Shown here: positions 12,775 to 64,000 of the stretch, piece by piece
Layout: every line of letters starts with the position of its first letter
Position numbering within the stretch: position 1 is the stretch's first letter
Assembly: GCA_003134375.1 (NCBI GenBank)
Contig: PLAY01000179.1
Span: 851 to 64,850 of the forward strand
Reading direction: 5' to 3'
Length of the DNA: 64,000 bases
Source of the DNA: Limisphaerales bacterium
GTDB lineage: Bacteria; Verrucomicrobiota; Verrucomicrobiia; Limisphaerales; UBA11358
Position numbers and translations under genes: made by a program
Notes under the pieces: model-generated
Databases searched by the model: none
The model's input: only the letters and a program-made list of their open reading frames with translations
Told to the model about the DNA's origin: nothing

Positions 12775-15216
12775 TTAACCATGCAGCCGGTCCCAAAGCC
12801 GGTTGGCATGGCGCGGACGAATGCCGTGCGCCAGTTCCAATGCCAGCGGCCTGTGGCCGGAGCGAACCAGGTTCTCACGCAGTTGAATTTTATCCGGCGT
12901 GAAAATGCGGATGCCGCGCCGACCGCGTGAAATGGTGACATACCATTGCTGGGCATTCGTTGCCGCCTTGATGGTGGAGTCGGAAAAGAGAACGTGATCC
13001 ACGGTCTTGCCCTGGGAACCATAGGACGTGACCGCGTAGCCGGGGAGGAACTCCCGGAAACCTTTTCCCAAAACCCGGCCGTCGGCCAATTCGATTCCGC
13101 CATCGGCGCGGACGGTTTTGACCGTGACCAGTTCCCCGTTGGAGGTCCGCCCACCGGCAGCCAGGGTGCGATTGGCCTTGAGGTGCAGCCGCTCGCCATC
13201 CGCAATCGCAATTTCACGCGGGCGACAGACCGTGATTTTGTCGAGCAGCTTGTTGGCGACGGTGACGCATTTGCCATCCACCTCGACCAGCACGCCAATC
13301 TTTACGATGCCCAATAATTTTCCGCTCGCTCCGGGAGCGGCCTGACGCACCTTTTGATTGAACACAATCACACCGTCTTTCGGATAAAAACGCTGATCGC
13401 GCTTTTGGGCATTCGTCAGGTCGGATTTTTCCAGCACTTGAACGGTGACATCATTTGCGCCAAGCAATCCTTTGGACTTCAGCGCATCGCGCACGCGCGA
13501 GTTGACGCGGTGGACTTCCGCCCAAGTCTGCGAAACGACCACGGCGGACGATTTTTGCTCTGCCAACCGGAGATATTCGTCGGCCAGCTTGTCGGCCTGT
13601 TCACCCAAACCGCAGGCAACAATCGCGCCCATCTGGTCAAGCCGCTTAAATGATTCGACCAGCTTGCCCGCCGCCGCCGCTTCGACGGCTTTGCGATACT
13701 GCTTGATGCGCGCCCGTTCACCTTGATTGCGGGCCAGCGCCGGGTCTTGCCGTCGGATGGTGTGCAATTCAACCGGCGCAATGCCGGAATACCGCTCAAT
13801 GGCCAGCAGTGCATCGGAGGCTTCGACCGCGCCATGTTGGCGTGTATCACCAGAAAGAATCACCCGCGCATTACGCTCGCGTGCCAGTTGCAACAACTGG
13901 TGCATCTGGCGGCCACCAATCTGGCCGGCCTCATCCACAACAATGACCGCGCCAACGGCCAGTTCACCCTTGATCAAAAAATTGGCAATCGTCGTTGGCG
14001 ACGGGAATCCCGCGCTTTCCATGTCCACGACCTGCTGACGTTGCAGCGCGAGGACAATGACGCGACGGTCTGATTGCCGGATTTGTTCAACCAGCTCGCG
14101 CAGGACAAAACTTTTGCCGGTGCCGGCACCGCCTCGAAAAAGCGTCACGGTGTTGGTTGAACGCAGCAATGCGTCCAAAGCGTTGCGTTGTTCGTCATCC
14201 AATTTCGGATTCGCCGGCTGCGGATTCTCAACGAAGGGACGGCAAGCGCCGACGCCATCCTTTACGCTCTGGACGATTTCCAACTCGCGCAACAACACTT
14301 CGCGCAACGTCACTTCATTGGGACATTCAGGACTGTGGATGTAATTGCGCTGGCGGGTGAATTCCTTGAGTTCATCCAGCGTGAAACTTTCGCCGCGTGC
14401 CCGTTCCAATGCCTGTTGCCACAACTGGCATTCCAGTACGACCGAGTTGCGGTCGAACAAATGTTCTTCCGCCCATTGCACCGCCTCACCGATGTCAACG
14501 CGTCTGTCCGCAATGGCGACCTTTTCAGAACGGTTCGGAAGTTGTCGCAACAAAGCACGCTCGGCATCGCTCAATTGCGCGTCCCATAAAGTCCGCAATT
14601 CAGCCCGGCTCAAATCCTTCTGTTTCCGCGCCCGAGTTTTAACTGCCAGTTTGGCGCGTATCTCCTTGAGGTTTGCGCCGGCCAATTCCGGTTTTTCGTC
14701 CAGCAATTTTGCCAGCGCCTTGTCAATCTGCGCGTCCCGTTTGGAAAAGCGTTCGCAAATCGTTTCTGACACACCCTCGATTTGGAAATCCCCGCGTGCT
14801 TGGTTGCAAATCTGATAACCAAAACTCCGCAATTCACGGGCGAGTTCATGGTAATAGACGTTCTCGGCAAATTTTCGGGCGCGCAACAATTCATAATTTT
14901 GCAGTGCCTTCCAGCGTTGCTCCACCGGATCAAAGGTCGCGTTGAACACGACGCAATGCGTGTGCAAATGCGGGTCGAGGGCGCGCGAGGTGTCATGGGT
15001 GAACAACGCCGCCGCAAAATTGCCGGTGGAACGGTCGCCATGCCCGCCACCAGCCCGAACGCGGGTTGTGGCAAATGTTTCGAGTTCCCGCAATGCCGAC
15101 CAAACAGCATGATCGTGATTGATGATGGCAAAATCATCCTCGTGACCATGCCGCAGAAGTTCCAGACCGAGCGGCGTTATGTGAACACGTTCCTGAAACT
15201 GCTTTTTTACAATCAC
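12775..15216 (-). pseudogene. 5'-truncated MobF/TrwC relaxase-helicase, lacking roughly the first 80-100 aa with the catalytic Tyr region
   Basis: It retains FTHDTSRALDPHLHTHCVVFN and GGAGTGKSF. The ORF begins at an arbitrary GVG-type codon (GTG 15216), aligned to about residue 85-105 of the intact paralog 854..3586. It abuts a T4CP fragment on the opposite strand. Confidence 0.8.
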
Positions 15217-26449: not shown

Positions 26450-29164
26450 ATGTTTGAACGTCCACCCAACGGTTTCTTTGTCCGCGATTTGATTTTGTTC
26501 AATCATCTGCGGCGCGGCGGTTATGTCGCCAAAGGCTTTGTCTTTGAACCGCCTGATTTGACCAACAGTCCCATCGCCGACCTGAATGAATTTCAGGAGC
26601 AGCTCTGTTTGCTGCTGGCATCCCTCCATGACAATCAGCGGCTGCAAGTCCAATACTTCTCCGACTCGGACTACAAAACCGAATTGCTCCGCTATCAGCA
26701 GGAGACCGAACGGTTTGAAAATGTCTGGACGAAGCGGTCGCGCAACGAACGGTTCGCGCGTTACTGGCAGGCAATGGTTGAGCGAAAACTCCGCCGTCAA
26801 CGCGTGGTTTTCTATATCTCACGCTCGCTGGAAAATGTTCCCCGAACACTCACCAGCAACGCCGCCTTGCGCGAGTATTACCTGACCCTGCTCGACCAGT
26901 TGGAAATGGAGTTCACGCACGTTCATCATCTGCTCAAGGAAATTTTCGCCAGCGCCGGAACGCGCGTGCTACCCATGACCGACCTCGACCATTTCAAGCA
27001 TTACAAAACTTTTCTCAATCCGTCGCTGGCCGACCGGTTTGATTTTGACGCCGCCCAGGATTTTCAGCCGGAACTTTCCGTTCAGGAAAATTGCTGGCAC
27101 AGCGAAGGCAACGGCCAGAGCGATTTCGGCTTCTACCTGGACGGCCATTATCATTCCGTCATCGCGCTCACCCGCTGGCCGCGCACCACCTATCCCGGCA
27201 TCATCCAACGACTCACCAATCTGCGCCTGCTGGACTACGCCATCACGGTCAATGTTGATCCGCTGCCCATCACCCAGGAAATCAACAAGGAGGAAAAAGA
27301 ACATGACCGCGTGGCCGGCGACTATGCCAGCGAAAAGAAAATCTCGCTGCTCACCGTCATGGAAAAGAAGCAGAAGAAGATTCACGCGCTCATGCAGGGG
27401 CAGACGATCCCGTTCAAGGCGCTGTTTGTCATCCGCATTTGGGACAAATCGAAGGACGGACTGAATGCGAAAGCCAGTGCCATCAAGAACGCCATCAATT
27501 CGATGAATTCCGCGCAGTATTTCGAGAGCAATCTGCCCAGCACTTCCAAAAATCTTTTCTTCCAGACGTGGCCGGGCTGGACGTGGGGACGCTACGAACA
27601 TCGCAAACTGTATTCTGAACATCGTTATCTGGCCGACATGCTGCCTGTCACCAGCACGTTCACCGGCCATCTGGCAACCGCCGAGGCCATCTACGACGGC
27701 CTCAACAACAATTTGATCGGCGTGGAAACTTTCTCCGGCTCGAAGGACAATCAATCGCCGCAACACGCGGTGTTGTTGGGGATGTCGGGCGCGGGCAAAT
27801 CCGTGACGGTTTGCGATTTGCTTTCACAAACGGAAGGATACTTCGCCTACACCGTCATCATTGAGGAGGGATTGTCCTACGGCATCTACACACAAACCGT
27901 CGAGGAGGGCGCGCGGCCCATCATCATTCATCCTGACGGCGACCTCACCATCAATTACCTCGACACGAAAGGTCTGCCGCTGACGCCCGATCATTTGTCG
28001 GCGGCGACCGCCCTGGTCGCCCGCATGATTGGCACATCGGCACAGGAGGACAAACAGATGCTCCGGCAGGCGCAAATCGCCAAATACTTGAATCTGCTTT
28101 ACGAGGATTCGTTTCAAGACTGGCAGAAAAAACGGCACGAGCAGTTGCTCGACATCGCCCGGCACGCGCTGGCCTTGCAAAAATTCCGCGCCGAAAAAAT
28201 GCCGCCGGGCGCGACCACCCTCGAAACTTTTGCGGACTTCCGAGACTGGAAGGCCAGCCACCTCAATGAGGCAAAAGAGTATCTCGCCGCGTTTAACGAA
28301 GGCGACGTGCTCCGGTTCTTGAAAGAACCCAAGACCAGCCGCGAAGTCCGCAACCTCGCTTTCGCCTATTTCACGCCGGAGGAATTTCCGACGCACCGGA
28401 TGCTTCAGGAACTGATGATGCTCGACCCGGTGGGTTCAGAGCGCGACCAGATCATCGAGATTGCCACGCTCATCCTGCCGTGGTGTCGCGACGGCAACTA
28501 CGGCTGCCTGTTCGACGGCGTGACAAACATTTCACTTACGGGAAAAATAGCGCACTTCGAGCTGGGCTATATCCCGGAATCGGCCAAGGAGTTGAAGGCA
28601 GCGGCGGGCTTCCTCATCACGAATCACGCGCGCAAGCATATCATCACGCTGCCGCGTGCCGTGCGGAAACGGAACGTCTATGAGGAAGTCGCCCGCTTCC
28701 TCGACATTCCCGGCGGCCAGGAAATCGTCCAAGAGTCTTATGCCCAATTGCGGAAATTCAATTGCTGGAACATTTCCATCGTCCAGCAATACGCAAGGTT
28801 CAAACAGTCGCGCATCCGCTCCGCCGTGTTTGGCAACAGCCGCCAGTTTTTCATCATGCGCCAGAACGACCGCGCGGATTTGGAGGACATGGCCCATGAC
28901 ATCGCGCTGCCCGAAGTCACCAAGCACGCGATTATGAATTATCCGCTGCCCGACCATCAGTCAGGGCAGAAGTATTCGCCGTTCACTTATTTTCACACCG
29001 ACTCCGGCCGGAATCTTTGCGGCACGGCTCACAACATTTCGTCGCGCGAAATGCTCTATTGCAGTTCTTCCAGTGGCGAACATTTCGACAAGCGCGCCCG
29101 CGAACTTCGCCAAAGTCCCAACATCGTCGAGGGCATCATCGCCCACGCCAATCCACCCAAATAA
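26450..29164 (+). CDS. virB4: VirB4/TrbE/TraC-like T4SS ATPase
   Basis: 904 aa with Walker A LLGMSGAGKSV. Size and operon position are typical of VirB4. Confidence 0.9.
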   Translation: MFERPPNGFFVRDLILFNHLRRGGYVAKGFVFEPPDLTNSPIADLNEFQEQLCLLLASLHDNQRLQVQYFSDSDYKTELLRYQQETERFENVWTKRSRNERFARYWQAMVERKLRRQRVVFYISRSLENVPRTLTSNAALREYYLTLLDQLEMEFTHVHHLLKEIFASAGTRVLPMTDLDHFKHYKTFLNPSLADRFDFDAAQDFQPELSVQENCWHSEGNGQSDFGFYLDGHYHSVIALTRWPRTTYPGIIQRLTNLRLLDYAITVNVDPLPITQEINKEEKEHDRVAGDYASEKKISLLTVMEKKQKKIHALMQGQTIPFKALFVIRIWDKSKDGLNAKASAIKNAINSMNSAQYFESNLPSTSKNLFFQTWPGWTWGRYEHRKLYSEHRYLADMLPVTSTFTGHLATAEAIYDGLNNNLIGVETFSGSKDNQSPQHAVLLGMSGAGKSVTVCDLLSQTEGYFAYTVIIEEGLSYGIYTQTVEEGARPIIIHPDGDLTINYLDTKGLPLTPDHLSAATALVARMIGTSAQEDKQMLRQAQIAKYLNLLYEDSFQDWQKKRHEQLLDIARHALALQKFRAEKMPPGATTLETFADFRDWKASHLNEAKEYLAAFNEGDVLRFLKEPKTSREVRNLAFAYFTPEEFPTHRMLQELMMLDPVGSERDQIIEIATLILPWCRDGNYGCLFDGVTNISLTGKIAHFELGYIPESAKELKAAAGFLITNHARKHIITLPRAVRKRNVYEEVARFLDIPGGQEIVQESYAQLRKFNCWNISIVQQYARFKQSRIRSAVFGNSRQFFIMRQNDRADLEDMAHDIALPEVTKHAIMNYPLPDHQSGQKYSPFTYFHTDSGRNLCGTAHNISSREMLYCSSSSGEHFDKRARELRQSPNIVEGIIAHANPPK

Positions 29165-32209: not shown

Positions 32210-33116
32210 TATATTATTGCTCACCGTCACGGTGCTCACTGCCAATGTTGCATTGGCGCAACCTTCCAAAGAAATTTTGAAAGATTTCCTGGATGAGAAC
32301 GTATTGATAGTAGTGCCGGTTGCCACCAACCGCGTCACCACGATCAGTTTTCCAAGCGCCATCACCGCCATTGACGGTGCGGGCGTCACGGTGGACGGAA
32401 AAACGCCGGGTCTGTTTCAACTGGCCCACACTAAAGGCTCGGCGTTTCTTTCCGTGCGCGCCCTGTTCCCAAAGGCATCGGCCAATCTCAACATCCGCTG
32501 GAATGACCACACCTACGTTTTTGAACTGACTGAAAGCGGCCAGCCGGTCTTATCGCTCAACCTGGCAGCCATGCCGACGCCGGACGAAGAAGGCGTTGGC
32601 CATGCGCCCGAAGTCAGCCCGATTAAACTTCTGGCCTTGCTCGACAAGGCCAAGGCGTTTCCGTTGCTCAAAGCGCAGCAGCCCGAAAGTGTCGCCGACG
32701 TGGACTTCACCACCTACGACGGCAAGCCGCTCGCCAGTGATTTCAACGATTACGAAATCCAGATCGAAGAAACCTTCCGATTCAACGCCGAGGACACACT
32801 GGTTTTTCGCCTCGTCATCACCAACAAGATTGACGCGCCCCTGATTTATCAGCCGGACAGTTTCGCATTGCGCGTGGGTAACCGGCTCTACCCGCAATCC
32901 ATCAGCGACGCCGACGGCACCGTGCCGCCCAAAGGCCAAAGCATCGTTTATTTCGCCGTCACCGGCACACCAGACGGCGGGCGCAACGAATTGTCATTGC
33001 GCAACGCCTTCACGGTTTTGGTGACGCGCCTATCGCCGCCGCCCCCACCGCCCGTTGTCACTGTCACCAATGCTCCCATTGTGAATCCCATCCGTTCACC
33101 CCGAGGCCACCTATGA
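32193..33116 (+). CDS. VirB9/TrbG-like outer-membrane-complex protein
   Basis: It has a signal peptide, then NRVTTISFPSAITAIDG...ANLNIRWNDHTYVFELTE resembling the VirB9 N-domain, and a Pro-rich tail. Confidence 0.6.
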   Translation: MKSTVNILLLTVTVLTANVALAQPSKEILKDFLDENVLIVVPVATNRVTTISFPSAITAIDGAGVTVDGKTPGLFQLAHTKGSAFLSVRALFPKASANLNIRWNDHTYVFELTESGQPVLSLNLAAMPTPDEEGVGHAPEVSPIKLLALLDKAKAFPLLKAQQPESVADVDFTTYDGKPLASDFNDYEIQIEETFRFNAEDTLVFRLVITNKIDAPLIYQPDSFALRVGNRLYPQSISDADGTVPPKGQSIVYFAVTGTPDGGRNELSLRNAFTVLVTRLSPPPPPPVVTVTNAPIVNPIRSPRGHL

Positions 33117-34174
33117 AACCGCGCGATTTCCTCAATTTTTTCAAAACCAGAAGCGGCAAGCTCCTTGCCTTTGGCGCAGTGTTCGCCGCCGCACTGATCA
33201 TTTTCAGTGTCGTTCGCAAACACCATACGTCCACCGATGATGCCGTGAGTGTCACGGTTCTGGCCACCAACGTCACGGACAAGCCCCAGGTGGTGCAGTC
33301 CGTCACGCGGCCAATGCAGGTTTATTATCCGCCGCCATCCAAGGCGCAACCAACGACGTCGTCGTCATCGCCGCCATCGGCATTTCCGAATCCTTCTCCG
33401 TTGCCAGTGGTGCCCGCGAACCAGTCGCCAACGCTCTCCCCCATCAGTTTGTTTGGCGACAGTTCGGCGGGAATTCCGCCGGCCAAAAAGTTGAGCGCGG
33501 TGTTTGCCCCGTTCGGACGGCTGATTCCCTGCGAAACCGTGGTTACGATTGACTCGGCTTCCATCCAGACACCCATCGTCGGCTTAGTCACTGAGAACAT
33601 CTATTATGGTGGCAGGCTGGTGATCCCGGCGGGCACGGAGATTCATGGAACGGCCCAAACCGACCATCAACGTGAACGCATCGCCAGCGGCAACATCTGG
33701 ACGTTGATCTGGCAAAACGGGATGGAAATGCAAATCAAGGCCATCGCCCTTGACCGCGAGTTTGCAAACGACACCAACCAGACCGGCTGGGCCATCACCG
33801 ACGGCAGCGCCGGTTTGCGCGGTGAGGTCATCAAGTCCGACAATTTCGCCGACCTCAAACTTTTTGCCGCGACATTCCTCTCCGGCGCGGCGGGCGCGCT
33901 GACGGAAAAACAACAAACCGTCTTCGGTCCCATCAACAGTCCCACGCTCAACAACGCGCCCTTTGCGGGCGCGCAGGCCGTGCTGCAAACCTACGCCCAA
34001 CAAATGTTGGATTCGATTCAAAAGAACGGTTTCTACGTCCGCGTGCCGAGCGGAAAACAATTTTATCTCTACGTCCTGCAAACCATTGACGCCGCCGATG
34101 CCTCACTCGGTGGCACCGCCATTCCCGTCACCCAGGAAACCGATGAACCAAACAAAACCAAATCAAAACCATGA
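33113..34174 (+). CDS. VirB10/TrbI-like protein
   Basis: It has an N-terminal TM, a Pro/Ser-rich linker, and a C-terminal domain LIPCETVVTIDSASIQTPIVGLVTENIYYGGRLVIPAGTEIHG...DGSAGLRGEV typical of TrbI/VirB10. Confidence 0.75.
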   Translation: MKPRDFLNFFKTRSGKLLAFGAVFAAALIIFSVVRKHHTSTDDAVSVTVLATNVTDKPQVVQSVTRPMQVYYPPPSKAQPTTSSSSPPSAFPNPSPLPVVPANQSPTLSPISLFGDSSAGIPPAKKLSAVFAPFGRLIPCETVVTIDSASIQTPIVGLVTENIYYGGRLVIPAGTEIHGTAQTDHQRERIASGNIWTLIWQNGMEMQIKAIALDREFANDTNQTGWAITDGSAGLRGEVIKSDNFADLKLFAATFLSGAAGALTEKQQTVFGPINSPTLNNAPFAGAQAVLQTYAQQMLDSIQKNGFYVRVPSGKQFYLYVLQTIDAADASLGGTAIPVTQETDEPNKTKSKP

Positions 34175-46612: not shown

Positions 46613-47662
46613 TTATGCGGTGACGACTTGCGCCACTGGTTCAATTCCTACGCCGTTGGCAAAGAGCTTCCGCTGCCGCTCGTATTCGCTTAACGACGGC
46701 AGTTCCACCTGCGCCCGGCGGGCGTAAGCGCGGTGCACGGCTTTGCTGTTATGTCCCAGGTTTTCCATCGCAAACCGTTCGGGATAGCCGGCGGTTTTTG
46801 CCCGTTCAGCCCAGGCGTATCGGTAACTATGTAACGTGACGCCTTTGATGTTAAGCCCCCGGCAGCGCTGCTTGAACTCCGTGGCCCGGTCACCCGCGCG
46901 GACGGTTCGCAGATGCGGAAACAACGGCCCGCTGCCCGGCAAATCCCGGAGAATTTCCGCCACATCTTCACTGAAGCGCATGATGGCAATTGAGCCGGTT
47001 TTCATGCGTGCAAAGCTGATGACGTGATGTTCCCAATCCACATTCTCCGCTTCCAGAAATGCCAGGTCGGATTGCGACGCGCCCGTGTGCCAGGCCATTT
47101 GGTAAAAGGCTTTGCGCTCCGGGTTTTTCTCGCGCCCGATGATCTGGCAATGCTCATCCCCAGTGATGGCCCGTTTGTCCTTGAACTCAATTGCCGGCCA
47201 CTGGCGCTTTACCACCACCGGCCACGGCAACCAGCCCATGTCCAAAGCAAAGTTGTGAATCCGGCGGAGGAAAACATTCGTTGAGACCGTGCCGACGTAC
47301 AGCACCTTCAGGAAATGCTCGGCCTGCGTTTCCAGAATCGGCAGGTCGCGAATCAAATCAAACGCCTTGTCCCGGATGGCGCGCTGCCAGCGGACGAGGG
47401 TTGGTCCACGCTTGGTTTTGCCCAGTTCGTCCATCGGCACCTGCCAGGTCCGCTTGGACACCATCGGATCGGTTGCGGCCAGATAGGTGCGTGCCAGTTG
47501 GAGATTCAGGTGCGCCTGCCGGTGCGACTGCGTTTTGGCGGCGAACAGTGCGGAGGCTTCCGCACGGTCACGGGTCTGCAGGCTTTCCTGCTTGCCGGTC
47601 TCATCGTCATGGACGTAATAAATCCCGCCATTGCGGCGGTAGAGACGGAATCGTTGCTTCAT
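46613..47662 (-). CDS. tyrosine recombinase / integrase (close paralog of 11714..12760)
   Basis: TLHSYRYAWAERA and LGHNSKAVHRAY are present, and it is collinear with the first integrase over its full length. The likely start is MKQRF at 47662, although the ORF extends to 47719. Confidence 0.9.
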   Translation of the reverse strand: MKQRFRLYRRNGGIYYVHDDETGKQESLQTRDRAEASALFAAKTQSHRQAHLNLQLARTYLAATDPMVSKRTWQVPMDELGKTKRGPTLVRWQRAIRDKAFDLIRDLPILETQAEHFLKVLYVGTVSTNVFLRRIHNFALDMGWLPWPVVVKRQWPAIEFKDKRAITGDEHCQIIGREKNPERKAFYQMAWHTGASQSDLAFLEAENVDWEHHVISFARMKTGSIAIMRFSEDVAEILRDLPGSGPLFPHLRTVRAGDRATEFKQRCRGLNIKGVTLHSYRYAWAERAKTAGYPERFAMENLGHNSKAVHRAYARRAQVELPSLSEYERQRKLFANGVGIEPVAQVVTA

Positions 47663-47700
47663 ATTTTTACGAAGCAGCGTAAGTCTGTCTTGGCTCCGCG

Positions 47701-48063
47701 TTGTGTAAGCTTTACACAATCCGACGCGGACAAATTGCCTGTCAGCGAGTTTTGCCGGAGTTTCAGCGGAGTTTTGGCGAGTCGTTGCCGAGTTTCACCA
47801 AGTCCGCCGTCTGCTGGCAGTTTTGCTGGCAGTTGCAACTTGATTCTTCACAACTCCTTGATGCCCAAGCATCGAAGTTGGAGGCGAGGGTCGGAATCGG
47901 ACGCGTCTCGCCTTCCACAAGCCACTCGAAATCAATTGCCTATGGCATCGCTGATGCCCTGAATATAAGGCGGTTACGTTTTATGTCAAGCTTAACTTCA
48001 TCCGACTTTTTTTAACTCCATTTAACCCTCACCGGATGCGGTTTGCTGGCATTTCTGCTGGCA
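47701..48063. promoter_or_regulatory. candidate att / integrase-binding region with clustered short repeats
   Basis: IR TTGTGTAA-GCT-TTACACAA lies at 47701-47719. Five tandem 11-bp units (GAGTTTTGCCG-like) span 47747-47801. TGCTGGCA(G) occurs four times as two pairs with 12-bp spacing (47812, 47824; 48044, 48056). Confidence 0.35.
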
Positions 48064-55689: not shown

Positions 55690-56274
55690 TCAATGAATCC
55701 AATAATGGCCGATGCAAATTCCATAGCCGAGAACCAGCAAAAACCAAGCGACCGACCGAAGTATCACCCGCCACGCGAAACGGTCCTGCAAGTCATTGGA
55801 GACTTGTTCCAACCGTTCGCATTGAGCCGTCGTGCTGGCCTTGATGCTTCCCCATTCAGATGCCGCACTTTCCATCAAAGCCTTCACCCGGCTTGCGACT
55901 GCCTCCGCGTCGGCAAGCTGCACCTGGATTTGTTCCGCAGCCTGCCGGGTTGCCTGAATGTGAATTTCGACAGTTTTTTTCAACTCCTTGTTCTGGCCGT
56001 CCACCGTGTCGGCAAAATCATCTGCCATCGCCTGACTCTGCCGCCGGTATTCAGCCAGATGTAGTTCGATCAATTTGCGGGCGTCATTCATCAAGCGCGG
56101 CAGATTGGCCGCGATGCGCCATTGCGCCCTGGTCAGCAGAGCCAGTTGCACCGGAAAATTGCTGTCCGGCCCGACACTCCATTCGTGCAATAGCCGGTGA
56201 ACCCGGTCCACTTCGTCCGTCGTCAGCCCGGCACACAGCGCCGCCAAATCATCTTTGTCCAGGTCCATACTCAT
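55690..56274 (-). CDS. hypothetical coiled-coil protein with a C-terminal TM, third gene of the HTH/ParA-like operon
   Basis: 194 aa. Its start overlaps the ParA-like stop. The C-terminal segment is VAWFLLVLGYGICIGHYWI. Confidence 0.5.
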   Translation of the reverse strand: MSMDLDKDDLAALCAGLTTDEVDRVHRLLHEWSVGPDSNFPVQLALLTRAQWRIAANLPRLMNDARKLIELHLAEYRRQSQAMADDFADTVDGQNKELKKTVEIHIQATRQAAEQIQVQLADAEAVASRVKALMESAASEWGSIKASTTAQCERLEQVSNDLQDRFAWRVILRSVAWFLLVLGYGICIGHYWIH

Positions 56275-57098
56275 TCACCCAAATTGAGCATGGGCTGTTT
56301 GGAGCGAGCCGGTTTCGCCGCCGGTTCGGTCTGCGGTTCAACCTCCGGCATCTGTTCCAATGGCACCAGCAAATCGGCAATCGCGTCGTATTGCCGGAAC
56401 ATCTGCTGCATTGCCCATTGCATTTCCCCGGCCAGCATCAATTCCAAGTGCGACGCACCGGGAGTCGCCACTTCCGCAAAACTCAACTTGCGTCCCGCCT
56501 TGGCCTCGGCGCGTTTGATGGCCAGCAGCGTAATGGAAGTCACCACCGGCAACGTCAGTTCCTTCGCCCCGAACTTTTTCAACTCGGCTTCGATGTTGGA
56601 TTTCTTGAAGAGGTTCGTCCTCACTTTGGCCGGGTTGTGGACAATCACATAATCCACGCGGTCGCCGGCGAAATAAAACAGGTCGAGCAGATTGCTCATG
56701 CTCTCCGTGTCCTCGCTGGGAAACAGGAAAAACGTGAAGCGGATGCCCTGCGTGGCGAGCGATTCAAGCAGTTGCAACGACTCCAGTGCCTGCACGATGA
56801 GGCCGTCGGCCTGCGCCCGGCAATCAATGACGTGAACCGGCGCGTCACTGCGCGACGCGTTACGAAACAATCCGAGCAGGGTGGATTTGCTGTCGTCGTC
56901 ATTGCCCAAAACATAGGACTGCACCTGTTCGGGATGGCGGTCGGCAAAAGAATGGTGCCGGTCATCGAGGTCAGAGCCGTTCCACTGTATGCCGTAATAA
57001 TCGAGCCAGGCGGTGCGGAACTCGGCCTCGAAACTTTTGCCGAGGCTGCCTTTGGATTGGGGATTGATGTGGATGCGTTTGGTGATGTTGGTGTTCAT
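56271..57098 (-). CDS. ParA/VirC1-like P-loop NTPase (full-length copy)
   Basis: It has SKGSLGKS Walker-A-like sequence and is a paralog of the truncated gene at 1..254. It is coupled to the upstream HTH gene. Confidence 0.65.
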   Translation of the reverse strand: MNTNITKRIHINPQSKGSLGKSFEAEFRTAWLDYYGIQWNGSDLDDRHHSFADRHPEQVQSYVLGNDDDSKSTLLGLFRNASRSDAPVHVIDCRAQADGLIVQALESLQLLESLATQGIRFTFFLFPSEDTESMSNLLDLFYFAGDRVDYVIVHNPAKVRTNLFKKSNIEAELKKFGAKELTLPVVTSITLLAIKRAEAKAGRKLSFAEVATPGASHLELMLAGEMQWAMQQMFRQYDAIADLLVPLEQMPEVEPQTEPAAKPARSKQPMLNLGE

Positions 57099-57454
57099 GT
57101 GAATTCTTCAGTGTTGAGGTTGGAGGGGTCGGGACGTTTGAAAGTGGGTGCCGCCGACAACGGTGCCGAGCGGGATTGCGGCCGACTGGCCGTTGCGTTG
57201 TGGCGGCCGGGTTGGAATTCGGAATTATTTTCCGCATCTTCCCAATGCGGTTTGGTCGCCCGCTTCAATCTGCGCCGGTAAAACAGATACGGAGCATGAA
57301 ACGTGACGCGGATGCCCTTTTCACTCAACAGCAAGTCGGCGATTTCCTGCCACGTCTTGCGCCGTTGGCGCTGCTCGCGGATGAAATCGTAGTGCGGTTC
57401 CAAAATGCTGTGGAACGGTTTGCCGCCGCGTTTTTGATGTGCCGTTTCAGTCAT
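57095..57454 (-). CDS. small HTH protein (paralog of 251..568)
   Basis: 119 aa, with the same gene order and overlap as the first module. Confidence 0.55.
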   Translation of the reverse strand: MTETAHQKRGGKPFHSILEPHYDFIREQRQRRKTWQEIADLLLSEKGIRVTFHAPYLFYRRRLKRATKPHWEDAENNSEFQPGRHNATASRPQSRSAPLSAAPTFKRPDPSNLNTEEFT

Positions 57455-57547: not shown

Positions 57548-57652
57548 GCGACGAATGGCGACAAATTCAAGTGACGAAAAGCGGCGAGTGCCGACGAAAT
57601 GTCAGGAGTGGATGCGACGAAAAGTGACAAATGCGTTGTCGCTTTTCGTCGC
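57548..57652. repeat. iteron cluster with consensus GYGACRAAW (6 direct + 2 inverted copies)
   Basis: Direct copies start at 57548, 57558, 57571, 57591, 57614 and 57624. Inverted copies lie at 57636-57642 and 57643-57652. The cluster is immediately upstream of the HTH/ParA-like operon. Confidence 0.5.
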
Positions 57653-58486
57653 TTTTAGTTGCCTGGTTTCTGGTTGCGTTTTTCACTACCGATTTTGGTA
57701 GGGGATGGTGTCTCGCTAAAAATCATTCCTGCGGGCTTCCGTTTTCCATGTGATTTGCCTTTGCCTTGAACGTATAGATTTCCGTTTCCGTGGCATGGTT
57801 GGCGTTCCGTTTTTTCGCGTGATGTTGTGTTCTTTGGTTAGCTGGCATGATGGTCGTGCTTTTCTTCGTTGGGTTTGATGGGTTTCCTTGGTTGCGATTT
57901 TGGGCGTCGGTTTTGATTTCGTTGCCGTTCGAGATTTCGTGTCCGCTGGCCGTGATGGTTTTCGTGATTATTCTACGGTGTGTTTTTTTCGGCGTTCGAT
58001 TTGTGGGCGTGTCGGGATTGACCGTCATGTTGTCATGCTTCATTTGCTATTGCCGGGTGAATGGTGGTGGCGGATTCATTTTCTTCATCCGCTTGGATGC
58101 CCTTCGCACTGAACGTCCGATTCTGAAATCGAAGCGGAATGGAGCGCGGTTTTAGAATCGGACATTGAGTGCGCTGCCGTATAGGTTCAGTTTGGATGCG
58201 GAGATTTGTCTGGCCGGTTGCTGAATACCTGGAGGCAAGCCGGCCAGTCAAAGCGCCGAACATTACCTCACTGTTTTCTGCATGCCGGCGTGTCTGACGA
58301 ACAAGGGCAAAATATTTTATCGTTGAAAAATAATTGGGCGGGAGTATGTATTTAACGCAAATTGGTGTTCAAACGTGATGCAAAGCTCGATAACAGTCCC
58401 TATAAGATTCAATAAATTCTACGCCTAAAATTTCAGAGCAAGATTGCATAAAGCCTGATTTGCGTTATCTACACACTCCCGTAATT

Positions 58487-58496
58487 GGGGGGGGGG
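58487..58496. repeat. G10 homopolymer tract upstream of the cas cluster
   Basis: Ten consecutive G residues are followed by an imperfect hairpin GGGGTGGAC-N7-GTCCCACCCC. Confidence 0.9.
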
Positions 58497-58626
58497 TGGA
58501 CCGCATTTGTCCCACCCCGTTTGTTAAGGTTTTGGCAGTCATGAAACATTGTGAACAATTTTGGCTTGTCACCGGGGCGTTGGCGATTTACCAAGACACA
58601 TTCAATTTCAGGTTGAAGGGAAACGT

Positions 58627-58806
58627 GTGAAATATTTCGCGCACACTGCGGTCGGTGAAAACGGGACACCACTACCAGAATCTTCTGGCCGATGGCAGCC
58701 ACTGGCCACGCATTTGTCCAACGTCGCCGAATTCGCTGGGCAATTTGCCGCGCCATTTGATCTGACCAATGAAGCCAAGCTGGCCGGATTTCTGCATGAT
58801 TTATGA
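58627..58806 (+). pseudogene. cas3: cas3 stub: about 59 codons of a Cas3 HD-domain N-terminus ending inside the HD motif
   Basis: VKYFAHTAVGENG...GRWQPLATHLSNVAEFAGQFAAPFDLTNEAKLAGFLHDL* follows the typical Cas3 N-terminal layout (AHS/T...W.PL..HL..VA..A..FA...). Its stop overlaps the cas5 ATG. Confidence 0.6.
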
Positions 58807-59426
58807 AGCCCTATCCCATTCAACTTGAAATCTCCGGCCCGACCGCCTTGTGGACACGGCCCGACACCGGTTCGTCTCCCGTTTCATACGTTGCGCCCAC
58901 ATTCAGCGCGGTGAAGGGCATCTTTGAATCTGTGCTGCGCTGGAAATCCGTGAATGTGCGGCCAACCAAAGTTGAGATTTGCGCTCCGGTGCAATTCCAC
59001 CGCTACACCACGAATTACGGCGGGCCGCTCCGCGCCAGCGACGCGATGAACAAGGGTGCGTCGTTCCAGTTTTATACCGTCGTGCTGGTCAATGTGTGCT
59101 ACCGGCTTTACGCGCAGGCCGAGTTTGCCGGGCATCACGACGGCACTACTTGGCCGCCGCACGCCTATCACGACGTTTTCAATCGCGCCTTGGATCGCGG
59201 GCAATGGTTTTACACGCCCTGCCTGGGCTGGAAGGAATTTGCACCGGACTATGTTGGCCCGTTCCGCCCGGAGACGCGCGTCTGCGAAATCGAGAACCAC
59301 GAACTGCCCACCATGCTGAAAATGGTGTTCGACCAAATGCAGAATGGCCAAGTGAAGCCATCATTCTACAACAAACGCAATCACCCCGACCTGCGCGTCG
59401 AGAAAGGAGTCCTCACCTATGCTTAA
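58803..59426 (+). CDS. cas5: Cas5c (Cas5d)-like protein
   Basis: ISGPTALWTRPDTGSSPVSYVAPTFSAVKGIFESVLRWK matches the Cas5d N-terminal signature (G..A.F.RP......VSY...TPSA.RGI.E.I.WKP). It is 207 aa. Confidence 0.85.
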   Translation: MKPYPIQLEISGPTALWTRPDTGSSPVSYVAPTFSAVKGIFESVLRWKSVNVRPTKVEICAPVQFHRYTTNYGGPLRASDAMNKGASFQFYTVVLVNVCYRLYAQAEFAGHHDGTTWPPHAYHDVFNRALDRGQWFYTPCLGWKEFAPDYVGPFRPETRVCEIENHELPTMLKMVFDQMQNGQVKPSFYNKRNHPDLRVEKGVLTYA

Positions 59427-61614
59427 CGAACTTTCGCAAGTAGCGGACTCGCTGGAGCGGCTTGGAACGGTAGCGCCGTCGCGCCATCCGCGAATCAACC
59501 CGATGGGGAAGAACAGAGATTTGCTTGTCGTGTCGTTGGACGACGCTGGTAACGCTTCCCGCATTGAGGTTCTACCTGGTGAAACAGCCGCAAATTTGTT
59601 TCGTGTCGAACATGGTTCAGCCGGGTCAAGCTTTCCCGGGTTCAACATCCCAACGCCGCTCCGCCGACTTGATGAGGCTTCGGCAGACGCACTCAAGCCA
59701 GCCGTTGAGAAACTGCTCGCGCTAGGAAAGAACAAAAATTCCAGCGCCGCAGAAATCAAGGAGTCCATTCGTGCCCTGTTCACGCTCTCCAAGGCGCAGA
59801 CTTCCAGCGCGAGACAGCAGCAGCAATTTCAATGGTCGTGTTGCGAATTGGTTTCAGAACTCGCCGAGTTGTTACCCCGTGAACTGGCCGGTTTGAAAAA
59901 CTTTACGACGCTGGTGGAAACGCTCGTCAAATCGAAACCCACGCTGCCTTTTTTCACCGAGTCGCTGGCGGGTTTGATGGTGGATCAGAACGCGGAGTTT
60001 GACCGCAGGCAATTACTGCTGTTTCAAGAAGTTTTGTTTGGGACACTTGATTGGAAGAAACGCACACCAGAGATTGCATCGCCCGACTACTGGAAAGAGA
60101 AGGTCAAGCAGGACAAAAACGCCAATCAACCCGTTTATCTCGACCTGACCTCGCCAAATGCCGCGTTTTGCAGAGTTGCCCATTCGGAGACGAGCGCACT
60201 GATCAATACGGCTCTCATTCAGACGCAATCACACGCCGCCGCAGGCGAGCCGGAGCAAGGTGACTGGGCGGAGGACGCTTTCGGGGAAACGGCAGAATTG
60301 CAGGTCAAATTCCCTCCCGGGCCGAAAGTTGCCGAGCTTGGGAATGTGAAACTGTTTTCGGTGAACACCAACGAGGTGCAAGCGTTGCAGCGGTATGGCT
60401 TCAAAGGATCTCAATCATTTCCGGTTTCCTCGGCGCGGGTTCAGAAGATGAGCGACGCGCTGCTTTACCTCGCCAGCGAGGACAAGCGCGGCATCACCTG
60501 CCGTGCAATACCCAGTGCGCAGCCCGACAAGCGCGACTTGCTCGTTGCCTATCTGGAAGGTGAGCCGGAAGGCCGCGCGCAATTGGCTGAAATGTTCGGC
60601 GGCGAAGCCAACTTATTTTCGGACGCCGATTTCGCGGCCATTGCTCAACCGGTTTTGGAGATGCTAGAGGGCAAAGTGGCAGCCAACCCCAACCTCAATA
60701 TCCGGCTGCTGGCATTTTGCCCAATAGACAAGGCCAAAAAGCAAATCAGCCTCAACCGCAGCCTGCGTGTGCGGGATGTCATCCAGGCGGCGCGGGACTG
60801 GGAGGCGGGCGCACGCAACGTGCCTCAAGTGTCGGTTTGGTTTTACGACAAGAACACCAAGCAATCCGTTTTCCGGTCACACACCGCGCCATGCCCACTC
60901 GAATTGTCATCGGTCATAAACCGTGTGTGGAATGCGGACGCCAAAAATGGTTTCACCGCCTCTTACCAGCGGGCAATTTCGATTGCCGATGCTTATGACG
61001 TGTTTCTTGCGAACTCGCCGCTCGCGAAACAAAAGTCAGGTGCAGCCATGGAATTGCTTGTTAGGCGAATGAGCAATGTGTTGATTGCCATCGGCGCACT
61101 GAAAACGACGGGCAAGTGGAATGGCGTGAGTGATACCGTCCGCTGGCAGTCGGTCAAGGCAATCGCCCTTTTCGGAATTCTCCTCCAACAACAACGTCAC
61201 GACAAAGATAAATATATGAATGAAACAATCTATAACATCGGCCGACTGCTGGCTTTAGCAGACAGCCTGCATCTCCAATACTGCAAGTTCGTTCGCACTT
61301 CCGAGGAAAAGCGGAAGACGGGCAAGGTTAATTCGCCAAGCGAACTCATAGGCAATGCTCTTTTCAACACTGCTCTGGATCAACCGGTGTCGGCTTTGGC
61401 ACGTCTCGCAGAAAGGATCAAGCCGTATAAAGGCTGGGCTGACACATATTCAGGCGAAGACGCCGGCCTGATTCATTGGATTAATAGGCAAATGGCAGAA
61501 GTGCGTAAGGGCATTGATCTGGAAAAATTAGCGCCTCGAACTTCTGACGCAGACAAAGCCAAACTTTTGCTCGGCTATTTGGCCGATCATCAACAAAACG
61601 AAACTCCGAAATAA
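59419..61614 (+). CDS. cas8c: Cas8c (Csd1)-like large subunit, with a possible internal Cas11c start at 61216
   Basis: Its position between cas5c and cas7c, its size (731 aa) and its C-terminal region IYNIGRLLALADSLHLQY...LLLGYLADH resemble the Cas8c C-terminus / Cas11c. The N-terminal half is divergent. Confidence 0.7.
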   Translation: MLNELSQVADSLERLGTVAPSRHPRINPMGKNRDLLVVSLDDAGNASRIEVLPGETAANLFRVEHGSAGSSFPGFNIPTPLRRLDEASADALKPAVEKLLALGKNKNSSAAEIKESIRALFTLSKAQTSSARQQQQFQWSCCELVSELAELLPRELAGLKNFTTLVETLVKSKPTLPFFTESLAGLMVDQNAEFDRRQLLLFQEVLFGTLDWKKRTPEIASPDYWKEKVKQDKNANQPVYLDLTSPNAAFCRVAHSETSALINTALIQTQSHAAAGEPEQGDWAEDAFGETAELQVKFPPGPKVAELGNVKLFSVNTNEVQALQRYGFKGSQSFPVSSARVQKMSDALLYLASEDKRGITCRAIPSAQPDKRDLLVAYLEGEPEGRAQLAEMFGGEANLFSDADFAAIAQPVLEMLEGKVAANPNLNIRLLAFCPIDKAKKQISLNRSLRVRDVIQAARDWEAGARNVPQVSVWFYDKNTKQSVFRSHTAPCPLELSSVINRVWNADAKNGFTASYQRAISIADAYDVFLANSPLAKQKSGAAMELLVRRMSNVLIAIGALKTTGKWNGVSDTVRWQSVKAIALFGILLQQQRHDKDKYMNETIYNIGRLLALADSLHLQYCKFVRTSEEKRKTGKVNSPSELIGNALFNTALDQPVSALARLAERIKPYKGWADTYSGEDAGLIHWINRQMAEVRKGIDLEKLAPRTSDADKAKLLLGYLADHQQNETPK

Positions 61615-61641
61615 TAAACCATCGAACTGCTGATTAAATTT

Positions 61642-62535
61642 ATGAGCACAAACAAAGACAACAACCTTGTTCCCCGCATCACCGGACTCCTGATTTTGGA
61701 AGTCCGCAAATCCAATCCCAACGGCGACCCCGAACGTGAAAGTTCCCCGCGCCAGCGCCCGGATGGCAAAGGTGAAATTTCACCTGTCTCCGTGAAACGC
61801 AAACTCCGCGACCTTGTGTCTGAAAAAGAGGGCGTCGTTTGGACCACCGTGAAGGGGGATTTGAAAATCGAGAATGACAATCAGTTTCAAATTCTCGAAA
61901 CACGGCATCGAGATCGTCCAAGCATTCAAGCCATGCTAAAAGAAAACAACTCGCAGCCTTTCAAAGATGCGTTTTGGGATGGCCGTCTTTTTGGTAACAC
62001 ATTTCTTGAAGAAGGCGGCTCAGACACGATTCGTGCTGGGGTGGCGCACTTTGGCGTCGGTGTCTCTCTCGCTCCGATTGACATCGAGTTCTCAACCTGG
62101 ACCAACAAGTCCGGCGTTGAGGCCGACAAAGATCGTGGAATGGCTCCGATGGCATTTCGTGTGGTGAAGCATGGTCTGTATGCCGTTCCGTTTTTCGTGA
62201 ACCCGAACCAAGCGCATAAAACCGGATGCGCGAAGCTGGATGTGGATTTGATGCTGCACCTGCTCAAACACACTTACGCCAGCACCCGCTCGGTTGTTCG
62301 TTCGATGGTTGAAGTCGTCCACGCCCACACGCTCACCCACAAGAGCCGCGCCGGTTCGGTTTCTGATTTCGCGTTCCTTGACGCGCTCACACCGAAGAAA
62401 CTAGAAAAGCCGTCCGAATCGTTGGCAGATTACGGCGCGCTTCCAACGTGGGAGAATATCAAAGACCAGCCCATCCGCCCCGACAGCAAGGTGACGTTTG
62501 CGCAATGCGGTGAATACCACGATTACGCCTTGTGA
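61642..62535 (+). CDS. cas7: Cas7c (Csd2)-like backbone subunit
   Basis: LILEVRKSNPNGDPERESSPRQRPDGKGEISPVSVKRKLRDLV carries the Csd2/DevR NPNGDP signature. It is 297 aa. Confidence 0.9.
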   Translation: MSTNKDNNLVPRITGLLILEVRKSNPNGDPERESSPRQRPDGKGEISPVSVKRKLRDLVSEKEGVVWTTVKGDLKIENDNQFQILETRHRDRPSIQAMLKENNSQPFKDAFWDGRLFGNTFLEEGGSDTIRAGVAHFGVGVSLAPIDIEFSTWTNKSGVEADKDRGMAPMAFRVVKHGLYAVPFFVNPNQAHKTGCAKLDVDLMLHLLKHTYASTRSVVRSMVEVVHAHTLTHKSRAGSVSDFAFLDALTPKKLEKPSESLADYGALPTWENIKDQPIRPDSKVTFAQCGEYHDYAL

Positions 62536-64000
62536 CCGAACCCGCGACCACGCTTGAACCGCTGGCCCACAGCGCCCGTAATGGCGCAACGGAACAGTCG
62601 TATCGTGATCACGCGGGAAATGTCCTTCGTGATGCGACACTGTTTGCACGGGCAGCGGCAGCGTTGTCGCCCAAGTGGCACGGTTCATTTGTGGCAGCGG
62701 TCGAACGGGCGGCGGCGTATCACGACCTCGGCAAATTGGATGAGTTGTTTCAGGAAGTTCTGCGCCACAACCGGAGGAACAAACACGGGTTCAATCACGT
62801 CGAAGCGGGCACGGCGCATTTGCTACGTCTGAAACAATTCGAGGCGGCTTTCACGGCCTACGCGCATCACATCGGGCTGCCCTCGTTTCCCAAGGAGAAG
62901 GCCAAGTTTGCCAACGGTCAGAATCTCGTCTTTCGCGACACCGGCGATTTAGAAGGGCTGGGACAAGCCGCATGGCAACGAACCGACGAACATCTGGAAA
63001 GCTACCTGTATCAGCACCACAATCTGTTTGCGCCTGTATCGCCAGTTGTCAATCCGCACTTCACAGGCTTGGTTCGCCGACTCGCTTTGTCCTGCCTCGT
63101 GGACGCCGACCACTCGGACACGGCCCGGCATTATCAGAATGAGATCGAAGTTTCCTCACCCGACTTGCAGGCAGCGCAGCGGTTGGCGCAATTGGACAAA
63201 TATGTGGCCTGGTTGTCGGCCAAGAACCCGCCAGCGAATGACCGGGAGCAGCAACGGCTCAAGTTGCGACAGGACGTTTATCGCGCCTGCCGCGAGCGGG
63301 AAGTCAAACCCGACGAGCGCATCCTTGCTTGTGACAGTCCGGTTGGCACGGGCAAAACCACCGCAGTCATGGCGCATCTGTTGCGAGTGGCGGCGGAGCG
63401 CAAGTTGCGCCGCGTGTTCGTCGTGCTGCCGTTCACCAACATCATTGATCAGTCAGTGGACGTTTATCGCCGTGCGTTGTGTCTGGTCGGTGAATCCAAG
63501 GAAGCAATGGAGAATGTGGTAGCCGCTCATCATCATCGCGTGGATTTCTCCAGCTATGAGGCGCGATGTCTGGCCGCGCGATGGGATTCACCCATTGTCG
63601 TCACCACAGCCGTTCAATTCTTCGAGACGCTGGCCGCTCGTGATACGGCTTCGTTGCGAAAGCTCCATCAGGTGGCTGGCAGCGCCATCTTCGTGGACGA
63701 GGCGCACGCCGCCGTTCCGCCCGCGCTCTGGCCGCAGATGTTTCGCTGGTTGCGGGAACTTTGCGACGATTGGGGCTGCCATCTGGTGCTGGCCTCCGGC
63801 ACATTGCCGCGTTTCTGGAATCGTCCCGGTTTCTTGCAGGAAGACGAACGCTGCGAAATTCCCGATCTCATCACGTCAGAAGTCAGGGCAGAGACGATGG
63901 CGTTCGAGGATAAACGGGTGTCTATTTGCAGAGAGCCGCAGGCCATGTTCGTTGAACGTCTGGCTGATTTCGTTCACAACAAGCCCGGCCCGCGACTTAT
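62532..64000 (+). CDS. cas3: Cas3 HD nuclease-helicase, 5' 489 codons (continues past the right edge; absent from the ORF track)
   Basis: Manual translation from GTG 62532 (overlapping the cas7 stop, GTGA) is open to the end of the window. HD motifs are LAHSA, YHDLGK and LVDADHSDT. Helicase motif I is DSPVGTGKTT and motif II is FVDEAHA. Confidence 0.9.
   Translation, partial: MTEPATTLEPLAHSARNGATEQSYRDHAGNVLRDATLFARAAAALSPKWHGSFVAAVERAAAYHDLGKLDELFQEVLRHNRRNKHGFNHVEAGTAHLLRLKQFEAAFTAYAHHIGLPSFPKEKAKFANGQNLVFRDTGDLEGLGQAAWQRTDEHLESYLYQHHNLFAPVSPVVNPHFTGLVRRLALSCLVDADHSDTARHYQNEIEVSSPDLQAAQRLAQLDKYVAWLSAKNPPANDREQQRLKLRQDVYRACREREVKPDERILACDSPVGTGKTTAVMAHLLRVAAERKLRRVFVVLPFTNIIDQSVDVYRRALCLVGESKEAMENVVAAHHHRVDFSSYEARCLAARWDSPIVVTTAVQFFETLAARDTASLRKLHQVAGSAIFVDEAHAAVPPALWPQMFRWLRELCDDWGCHLVLASGTLPRFWNRPGFLQEDERCEIPDLITSEVRAETMAFEDKRVSICREPQAMFVERLADFVHNKPGPRL

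Follow-up and report, generated by a model that had tools for sequence, protein, structure and literature searches.

Type I-C (Dvulg/Csd) systems of CRISPR repeats and CRISPR-associated (Cas) proteins are canonically encoded in the order cas3-cas5c-cas8c-cas7-cas4-cas1-cas2, and their classical repeats are about 32 nucleotides (nt) long. Cas5 cuts the repeat, Cas5, Cas8c and Cas7 form the Cascade complex, Cas3 degrades the target, and Cas4, Cas1 and Cas2 add new spacers; the small subunit Cas11 is made from an internal start within cas8c. Type I-B loci follow the order cas6-cas8b-cas7-cas5-cas3-cas4-cas1-cas2, and the type I-C systems borne by integrative and conjugative elements (ICEs) of Pseudomonas aeruginosa (pKLC102-like elements) have the canonical I-C gene order. 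Here we analyse the cas genes at the right-hand end of a stretch of 64,000 nt (the window) from a Limisphaerales bacterium of the Verrucomicrobiota (assembly GCA_003134375.1, contig PLAY01000179.1, positions 851 to 64,850). Judged from comparison with related loci, the window very likely contains the 5' half of a type I-C locus that is complete and probably active, and into which the effector cassette of a divergent I-C branch has been swapped; a 59-codon cas3 stub at the head of the operon is most likely a dispensable relic of this exchange, and such swaps appear to recur in both directions.

About 120 loci (123 in the palindrome scan), mostly on metagenome contigs, were retrieved for comparison and are referred to by L-numbers; coordinates on L001 are converted to window coordinates by adding 51641. 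The divergent I-C branch is labelled V, and the genes of its cassette are called cas5v, cas8v, cas7v and cas3v. Window proteins were compared with the PADLOC, NCBIfam and Pfam profile libraries, and breakpoints were mapped by running blastn with the window lineage on all loci. Across the stub region, including a run of ten G residues (G10) in front of the stub, four contigs of 55-117 kb match the window at 100%. The features concerned, all on the plus strand, are:

58487..58496, plus strand: G10 tract on the left margin of the leader palindrome (direct reading)
58493..58626, plus strand: conserved leader (promoter/operator region) from a canonical I-C cas3 operon (blastn)
58495..58515, plus strand: operator-like palindrome GGTGGACCGCATTTGTCCCAC (motif scan)
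58550..58571, plus strand: second leader box, TGTGAACAA-N6-7-GGCTTGTCA (20 loci)
58627..58806, plus strand: cas3 stub, 59 codons of the 5' end of a canonical I-C cas3 (profiles and alignments)
58803..59426, plus strand: cas5 (cas5v), first gene of the swapped-in cassette (Cas5c profiles)
59419..61614, plus strand: cas8c (cas8v), 731 amino acids (aa) (PADLOC PDLC01562)
61642..62535, plus strand: cas7 (cas7v), 297 aa (Pfam Cas_Cas7)
62532..64000, plus strand: cas3 (cas3v), codons 1-489 of 766, closing the cassette and running off the window edge (profiles)

The stub opens at GTG 58627, comprises 59 codons (translation VKYFAHTAVGENGTPLPESSGRWQPLATHLSNVAEFAGQFAAPFDLTNEAKLAGFLHDL) and ends in ..LHDL, with its TGA overlapping the ATG of cas5 as ATGA at 58803 (ttATGa). 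The first-pass annotation of this DNA had read it as the N-terminus of a Cas3 HD domain, and this reading is borne out. HD motif I (AHT) and motif II (HD) are both present, Cas3 HD profiles match (PADLOC Cas3, E=2e-8, and Cas3c, 1e-7; NCBIfam cas3_HD, 8e-4), and the 5' ends of the full-length cas3 genes of L044-L050 are 83-85% identical at the amino acid level over all 59 residues and 88-91% identical at the nucleotide level. By these alignments the similarity to Cas3 N-termini is far beyond chance, and the stub is identified as the 5' terminus of a type I-C cas3 of the canonical kind. A partial duplication of the downstream cas3 was considered as an alternative source and rejected, as there is no similarity between the stub and the downstream Cas3 N-terminus.

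That the stub is left over from a cas3 once located in the canonical first position had likewise been proposed, and full-length canonical Cas3 parents were indeed found. A protein search with the stub profile gave 478 matches, the best 120 of which were all at most 138 aa long, and a search of representatives also gave full-length relatives of 730-790 aa. The idea of a small-gene family without a full-length parent was overturned by a DNA-level metagenome scan with the stub profile, which recovered 80 loci: 41 encode an intact Cas3 of at least 700 aa with a stub-type N-terminus, followed by canonical cas5c in 39 cases, while in the others the open reading frame (ORF) runs off the contig end (23 loci), the stub is followed by cas5v (5 loci) or the gene is interrupted or truncated (11 loci). 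The window stub is closer to the 5' ends of full-length canonical cas3 genes than to most other stubs.

The borders between the two ancestries could be placed at the level of single bases. Canonical loci align with the window lineage at 58493-58802 (134 nt of leader plus the stub; 84-92% nucleotide identity), and the alignment stops one base before the cas5 ATG; the leader shows 84-92% identity to the sequence that precedes full-length canonical cas3 in L044-L053, and its alignment runs on into the stub. To the right, similarity to canonical loci begins again 5 nt ahead of the cas3v stop (72-84%), from where it enters either an antitoxin/ParE pair (L046, L086) or cas4 (L048, L050, L055, L062, L104; 78-84%). 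L057 and L058 additionally share the upstream operon of three genes (73-76%). Among the proteins, Cas4 of the window lineage is 80-85% identical to Cas4 of canonical loci, whereas Cas5, Cas7 and Cas3 are just 22-29% identical. Because canonical loci share only the leader and stub, the toxin-antitoxin (TA) or cas4 side and, twice, the upstream operon, a cassette replacement in place is indicated, and the simplest reading of these breakpoints is that cas3 from codon 60 to its end, cas5c, cas8c and cas7c were exchanged for a V cassette of 6.0 kb.

In this scenario the V cassette would begin with the cas5 ATG at 58803 and end with the stop of cas3, which lies about 830 nt past the window; the cassette would have entered the resident operon by recombination, with the cas3 stub as the scar. 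The leader, the 59 cas3 codons, the antitoxin/ParE pair, cas4-cas1-cas2 and the 37-nt repeats would have been supplied by an ordinary I-C lineage. Earlier, cas3 had been thought to have shifted to the position of the adaptation genes; the blastn breakpoints point to a four-gene cassette, with cas3 already last, that replaced the resident effector genes. Transcription presumably begins at the retained leader, and ribosomes would initiate on the former cas3 GTG, terminate at the TGA of the ATGA overlap and re-initiate on cas5. The resulting V system would work as type I-C does.

The assignment of the window proteins as Cas5c, Cas8c-like and Cas7c, followed by a second, complete cas3, holds as first described, with PADLOC, Pfam and sequence reading in agreement. 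All three Cascade proteins score under the NCBIfam type I-C cut-offs, whereas the canonical locus L050 clears those for Cas5c, Cas8c/Csd1 and Cas7/Csd2. Cas5 is 24-29% identical to canonical Cas5c and matches PADLOC Cas5c (1e-23) and Pfam Cas_Cas5d (2e-12); its NCBIfam Cas5c score is 46.7 versus a cut-off of 85. Cas7 contains NPNGDP and matches Pfam Cas_Cas7 (3e-40; 139 bits versus a cut-off of 33), reaches 100.4 bits with NCBIfam Csd2, below the cut-off of 182.25, and has the joint I-B/I-C Cas7 profile as its best PADLOC match; the exact window protein occurs in 233 blocks of the assembly collection. For Cas8c the PADLOC profile PDLC01562 matches over residues 1-729 (E=4e-121), which means that V-branch Cas8c proteins are already part of classification profile sets, and the Csd1 models NCBIfam TIGR01863 and Pfam PF09709 match only residues 597-725 (NCBIfam 28.9 versus a cut-off of 218.65 bits). 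There are 233 homologue clusters of this Cas8c, mostly from Verrucomicrobiota, and relatives in NCBI records carry the name 'hypothetical protein'. Since the V proteins fall below the NCBIfam I-C cut-offs, the branch is probably under-counted.

Met600 of Cas8c (window 61216-61218) is invariant in 12 homologues and starts the sole Csd1-like region; no clear Shine-Dalgarno (SD) sequence was seen upstream of it. Its position would be consistent with an internally translated Cas11, as in canonical I-C. The downstream cas3 opens with GTG 62532, which shares the sequence GTGA with the cas7 stop, and encodes the motifs AHS, YHDLGK and VDADHSDT (HD) as well as GTGKTT and DEAH; it thus fuses a complete HD domain with a DEAH helicase, as type I-C requires. 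The full-length gene (L001 10891-13191) encodes 766 aa with Helicase_C and Cas3-like_C_2 domains and matches PADLOC Cas3c (8e-68). Its origin from another lineage, as suggested before, is supported by an identity of 27-29% to the canonical Cas3 proteins that match the stub.

The leader in front of the stub is conserved together with putative regulatory sites. The palindrome (family consensus TTGGAC-N-G-N4-TGTCC(C/A)A) occurs as a single copy in 43 of the 123 loci, canonical and V alike; its distance to the downstream start of cas3 or the stub is mostly about 130 nt, with extremes of roughly 50 and 700 nt. The half-sites do not vary and no covariation is seen between them, which makes a DNA site bound by a protein likelier than an RNA hairpin, and the conservation of the palindrome points to a regulator of these operons. 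The second leader box occurs in 20 loci of both effector types, including L024, a V locus that has lost the stub. A promoter scan gave one consensus-like site (58532-58559), no more than shuffled sequences give, and no terminator; a search of Rfam gave no family in the leader or the array and only chance microRNA matches elsewhere.

A G10 tract with a hairpin, open to slipped-strand on/off switching, had been noted upstream of the stub. The tract is real (58487-58496), and the hairpin corresponds to the palindrome (GGAC-N7-GTCC) that is kept in related leaders. For the switching we find no support, as far as assemblies can tell: G10 is present in five independent assemblies with the same length in all, and it is strain-specific, replacing the usual T-rich or GGGTT sequence (relatives have, for example, TTTTCGGGTTGGAC at that place).

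Past the window edge, the identical contigs continue in the order cas3, antitoxin/ParE pair, cas4, DUF6429, cas1, cas2 and array. The adaptation genes and array begin about 0.9-3.8 kb beyond the edge; Pfam Cas_Cas4, Cas_Cas1 and CRISPR_Cas2 were found on L001, all outside the window, and no cas6 was found among the called genes of L001-L004. The array starts at L001 16155 and comprises at least 66 repeats of 37 nt (GTCGCCCCGGTCGCGTGACCGGGGCGCGGATTGAAAC, ending GCGGATTGAAAC) with spacers of 33-37 nt. When compared with the window and the retrieved loci, 66 spacers gave only chance matches of 16-18 nt. It was correct that the window has no CRISPR repeats, as it contains zero copies of the array repeat; the conclusion that the locus is an interference-only or hybrid derivative was wrong because cas4, cas1, cas2 and the array lie past base 64000, where they were found by rightward extension on the identical contigs.

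The antitoxin/ParE pair consists of a 68-aa ORF overlapping a ParE toxin gene (Pfam 5.7e-20, 72 bits; L001 13245-13732, window 64886-65373) and falls precisely on the right-hand junction, in the gap that separates cas3 from cas4. This pair also occupies the cas7-cas4 gap in the canonical loci L046 and L086 and the cas3-cas4 gap in the V locus L007; L010 retains just the 68-aa ORF. Located within a cas operon where two modules meet, such a TA pair might have a stabilising effect on the locus. The DUF6429 gene between cas4 and cas1 (79 aa, Pfam 3e-28; L001 14338-14577, L005 16934-17167) is an insertion seen just in the window lineage and L005.

How common the order with cas3 last is was read from 37 V loci, obtained by scanning the Cas8c alignment over one genome per species; gene order was determined by tblastn with the window proteins and judged only where the locus was long enough. 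Every sufficiently long locus has the order cas5-cas8c-cas7-cas3-cas4-cas1-cas2, and nearly all loci of the survey have a 37-nt repeat array with the same 3' end as that of the window lineage (GCGGATTGAAAC). The hosts belong to Verrucomicrobiota, Planctomycetota, Latescibacterota, Binatia, Acidobacteriota, FCPU426 and Methylococcaceae, and the loci include the complete genome of Methylomicrobium lacus and chromosomes of complete metagenome-assembled genomes (MAGs) and of an isolate. By this survey, cas3 in last position is the norm for the divergent I-C branch V, a common branch whose proteins are mostly called 'hypothetical protein' in public records. The first-pass annotation had taken the order for a private rearrangement and had named its widespread occurrence with adaptation genes and array as the outcome that speaks against this; it is this outcome that was found. 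A literature search on the gene order, truncated cas3 and I-C variants gave no paper describing the V order or such swaps.

Most V loci reside on large chromosomal contigs; V-type Cas7 is absent from 72,556 PLSDB plasmid records (tblastn), and a megablast of the locus against PLSDB was also empty. These data bear on the possibility that an I-C derivative of interference-only or hybrid type arose by local rearrangement on a mobile element, possibly switched by the G10 run. The zero repeats in the window, the conjugation genes in the same window and the G10 run in the leader fit such a derivative, but the adaptation genes and the large array within about 0.9-3.8 kb of the edge, the universality of the gene order in the branch (including complete MAG chromosomes and an isolate), the G10 tract that is invariant in five assemblies and missing in relatives, and the lack of V-type Cas7 in plasmid records together render this explanation highly improbable.

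The fate of the upstream cas3 remnant differs between V loci. Among 34 V loci, four have intact LH(D/Q)L* stubs on the cas5 ATG and three have longer ones; in nine the stub is truncated after 10-40 recognisable residues, one is frameshifted, one (L009) is split by an insertion sequence (IS), and 16 have none. In L024 the leader was kept and the stub was deleted almost precisely. On the 3.0-Mb contig of L009 a gene for a 476-aa transposase (L009 7319-8749) lies inside the stub; a full second cas3 upstream had been considered for this locus and was dismissed, as the 2-kb gap is the IS inserted in the stub.

One explanation for these remnants is a single ancient loss of the upstream cas3 in the V ancestor, with stubs inherited vertically and no later exchange. 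M-x-Y-Y-A-H-T remnants in deep V lineages (FCPU426, Methylobacter, Latescibacterota, Planctomycetota) and the identical LHDL*/ATG junction in several V loci are in line with this. However, each V stub has its closest counterpart in a different canonical cas3 5' end and not in another V stub: the stub of L011 is 91% identical to canonical L062 versus 79% to the best other V stub, and that of L001 likewise reaches 91% to a canonical cas3. Identity of leader and stub is also discordant with that of the cassette. L001 and L051 share 90% (leader) and 89% (stub) of nucleotides, yet their Cas5v and Cas8v proteins are 63% and 36% identical, respectively; conversely, L001 and L010 have 98% identical Cas5v proteins and stubs with 54% amino acid identity. 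Moreover, a neutral scar would not hold about 50% identity where Cas8c has only 26%. Together with the reverse and layered scars described next, this makes a single event quite unlikely.

Reverse scars are present in L103, L105 and L074, where the first 54-62 codons of cas5v stand directly before a full canonical cas3, and in L103 the leader palindrome is found upstream of the cas5v scar. L061 is layered, with cas5c, cas5v, an internally deleted cas3, cas5c and an intact V cassette in succession. L097 contains a 316-aa cas3 remnant and 28 codons of cas5c before a cas5v that is 98% identical to that of the window. Reverse scars, layered scars and discordant identities suggest repeated, two-way swapping behind the same leader, for which stub and leader could have served as a homology arm. 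Taken further, two diverged I-C cassettes might repeatedly exchange behind one operator-bearing leader, with leader and stub as the left arm, the TA pair, cas4-cas1-cas2 or the array as the right arm, and the stubs as both a record of the swaps and a working part; this extended view is possible, and we put it forward tentatively. If it is true, the whole effector could be changed while spacer memory is kept, provided that both cassettes really use the 37-nt repeat ending GCGGATTGAAAC, and an exchange of effectors under a shared array could be a route to evade anti-CRISPR proteins directed against one of them.

Remnants of cas operons were also noted in several other loci. The canonical loci L042 (2962-4432), L054 and L055 contain a second leader with about 43 cas3 codons, placed about 1.1 kb upstream of the cas3 gene proper; the interval holds a 70-aa ORF and a Fic-domain gene in L042. 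This doubled leader is another case of a stub left by insertion behind the leader. The cas3 of L042 has an in-frame stop at codon 116, which is found in neither L054 nor L055. In L043 (8001-8865) the first 86 or so cas3 codons stand about 90 nt ahead of a cas2 3' end of 54 codons, with partial overlap of one and the same 117-aa ORF; the intervening cas operon is deleted, and a 4-repeat array beside a tyrosine integrase gene follows the cas2 end. In L106 (6001-8783) a 285-aa N-terminal cas3 remnant is joined to the 3' end of cas4, followed by cas1-cas2; L106 is an effector-less derivative retaining the adaptation genes.

In the window the stub is most likely a relic, because stubs are decayed or absent in other V loci. 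Some points weigh against our interpretation of the locus. The ratio of nonsynonymous to synonymous substitution rates (dN/dS) over the 59 codons is 0.05-0.37 for canonical pairs, 0.16-0.37 for V-canonical pairs and 0.43 for two V stubs; it is still below 1, which suggests a weak or mild relaxation of constraint, with low power given 59 codons. In the protein database, numerous different stubs stop at precisely one junction, LHDL*, which implies common descent combined with within-stub recombination, or selection for the ORF. No obvious SD sequence of its own was seen upstream of cas5, and the stub ORF may serve translational coupling in this strain, which the ATGA overlap makes plausible. The number and direction of the swaps were deduced from about 120 loci, mostly metagenome contigs. 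Finally, the two newest, leader-proximal spacers of the array have no exact match in the viral collection.

Some of these points would also be expected if the stub were a functional small gene, either a 57-59-aa two-helix peptide from the Cas3 HD N-terminus with Cascade or Cas3 as its target, for instance as a decoy or regulator, or, in a weaker form, an upstream ORF needed to load ribosomes onto cas5. Its intact ORF with the original GTG, the conserved GGGAAAC box upstream, the ATGA overlap with cas5, the lack of a clear SD sequence before cas5, the dN/dS below 1 and the existence of hundreds of such short metagenome ORFs, a large share of which have 57-59 aa and the ending LLHDL (P0163, for example, is on 61 contigs), all agree with a function. 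The peptide itself cannot be a nuclease because it has just HD motifs I and II. Against a functional gene, half of the V loci are without a stub, in many others it is truncated, frameshifted or IS-split, and L024 lost the stub and kept the leader; the conservation is explained by full-length canonical Cas3 parents, which are closer to each stub than other stubs are. In addition, the count of stubs in databases is biased towards intact ones because gene callers list open frames only. We therefore consider a functional stub gene unlikely and prefer to regard the stub as the scar of the cassette exchange.

The remainder of the window carries genes of a conjugative element, as had been recognised earlier: two TrwC relaxase/helicase genes (854-3586 and 12775-15216, the second missing ~100 positions at the start of its relaxase domain), a TraG-like ATPase (26450-29164), TrbI (33113-34174) and a tyrosine integrase (46613-47719). 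They make up a single conjugative element whose relaxase is duplicated, or else two elements of which one is nested in the other. Upstream of the cas genes, a three-gene operon on the minus strand (55690-57454; 194, 275 and 119 aa), previously labelled 'HTH/ParA-like', has no Pfam or PHROG match. It is syntenic with the I-C locus both in V form (window) and in canonical form (L057/L058 2978-5007, 73-76% nucleotide identity), and one of its products, with the 119-aa protein encoded at 57095-57454 as a candidate, could be a regulator binding the leader palindrome. A strong local palindrome at 57612-57656, with chance matches to a plant microRNA model on both strands, may be the iteron or hairpin region mentioned in the first-pass annotation.

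In comparison with known systems, the window locus resembles canonical I-C in showing no cas6 among the called genes of L001-L004, in having cas5 as the first Cascade gene, a Cas8c-family large subunit, a Cas7 with NPNGDP, and separate cas4, cas1 and cas2 genes, and in its stem-loop repeats ending ATTGAAAC; its leader, stub, TA pair and cas4 are 72-92% identical to canonical I-C loci at the nucleotide level. It differs in that cas3 is located after cas7, not before cas5, and in its repeat length of 37 nt. The position of cas3 after the Cascade genes, directly before cas4-cas1-cas2, recalls type I-B, and I-B profiles are matched at a weaker level by Cas7 (Cas7b/c PDLC01614, 5e-42), Cas3 (Cas3b, 4e-45) and Cas5 (Cas5b). 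Unlike in I-B, cas5 comes first, not after cas7, the best profile matches of Cas5, Cas8 and Cas3 are I-C, and none of the profile libraries gave a Cas8b or Cas6 match among the proteins of the locus. The system is thus best filed as a divergent I-C variant with an I-B-like effector order. As in the ICE-borne I-C systems of P. aeruginosa, the locus lies near mobile-element genes, here in the same 64-kb stretch as those for TrwC, TraG-like, TrbI and integrase proteins; unlike them, the V branch is found mostly on large chromosomal contigs and was not found among PLSDB plasmids. Huge phages have an 'I-C variant' of another kind, which is without cas1 and cas2 and has a helicase instead of Cas3.

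The shuffling of effector and adaptation modules among CRISPR-Cas systems is an established idea (Koonin and Makarova 2019, PMC6452270). Here, too, an effector module is joined to an adaptation module and array of separate ancestry, and the exchange differs from this concept in that it took place between two branches of one subtype. What is new is the swap in place, with breakpoints at the level of single bases, a retained leader, 5' stub scars in both directions and layered intermediates. The locus thus provides an example, at base resolution, of the replacement of an effector module inside a CRISPR-Cas operon, by which module shuffling becomes mappable and testable.

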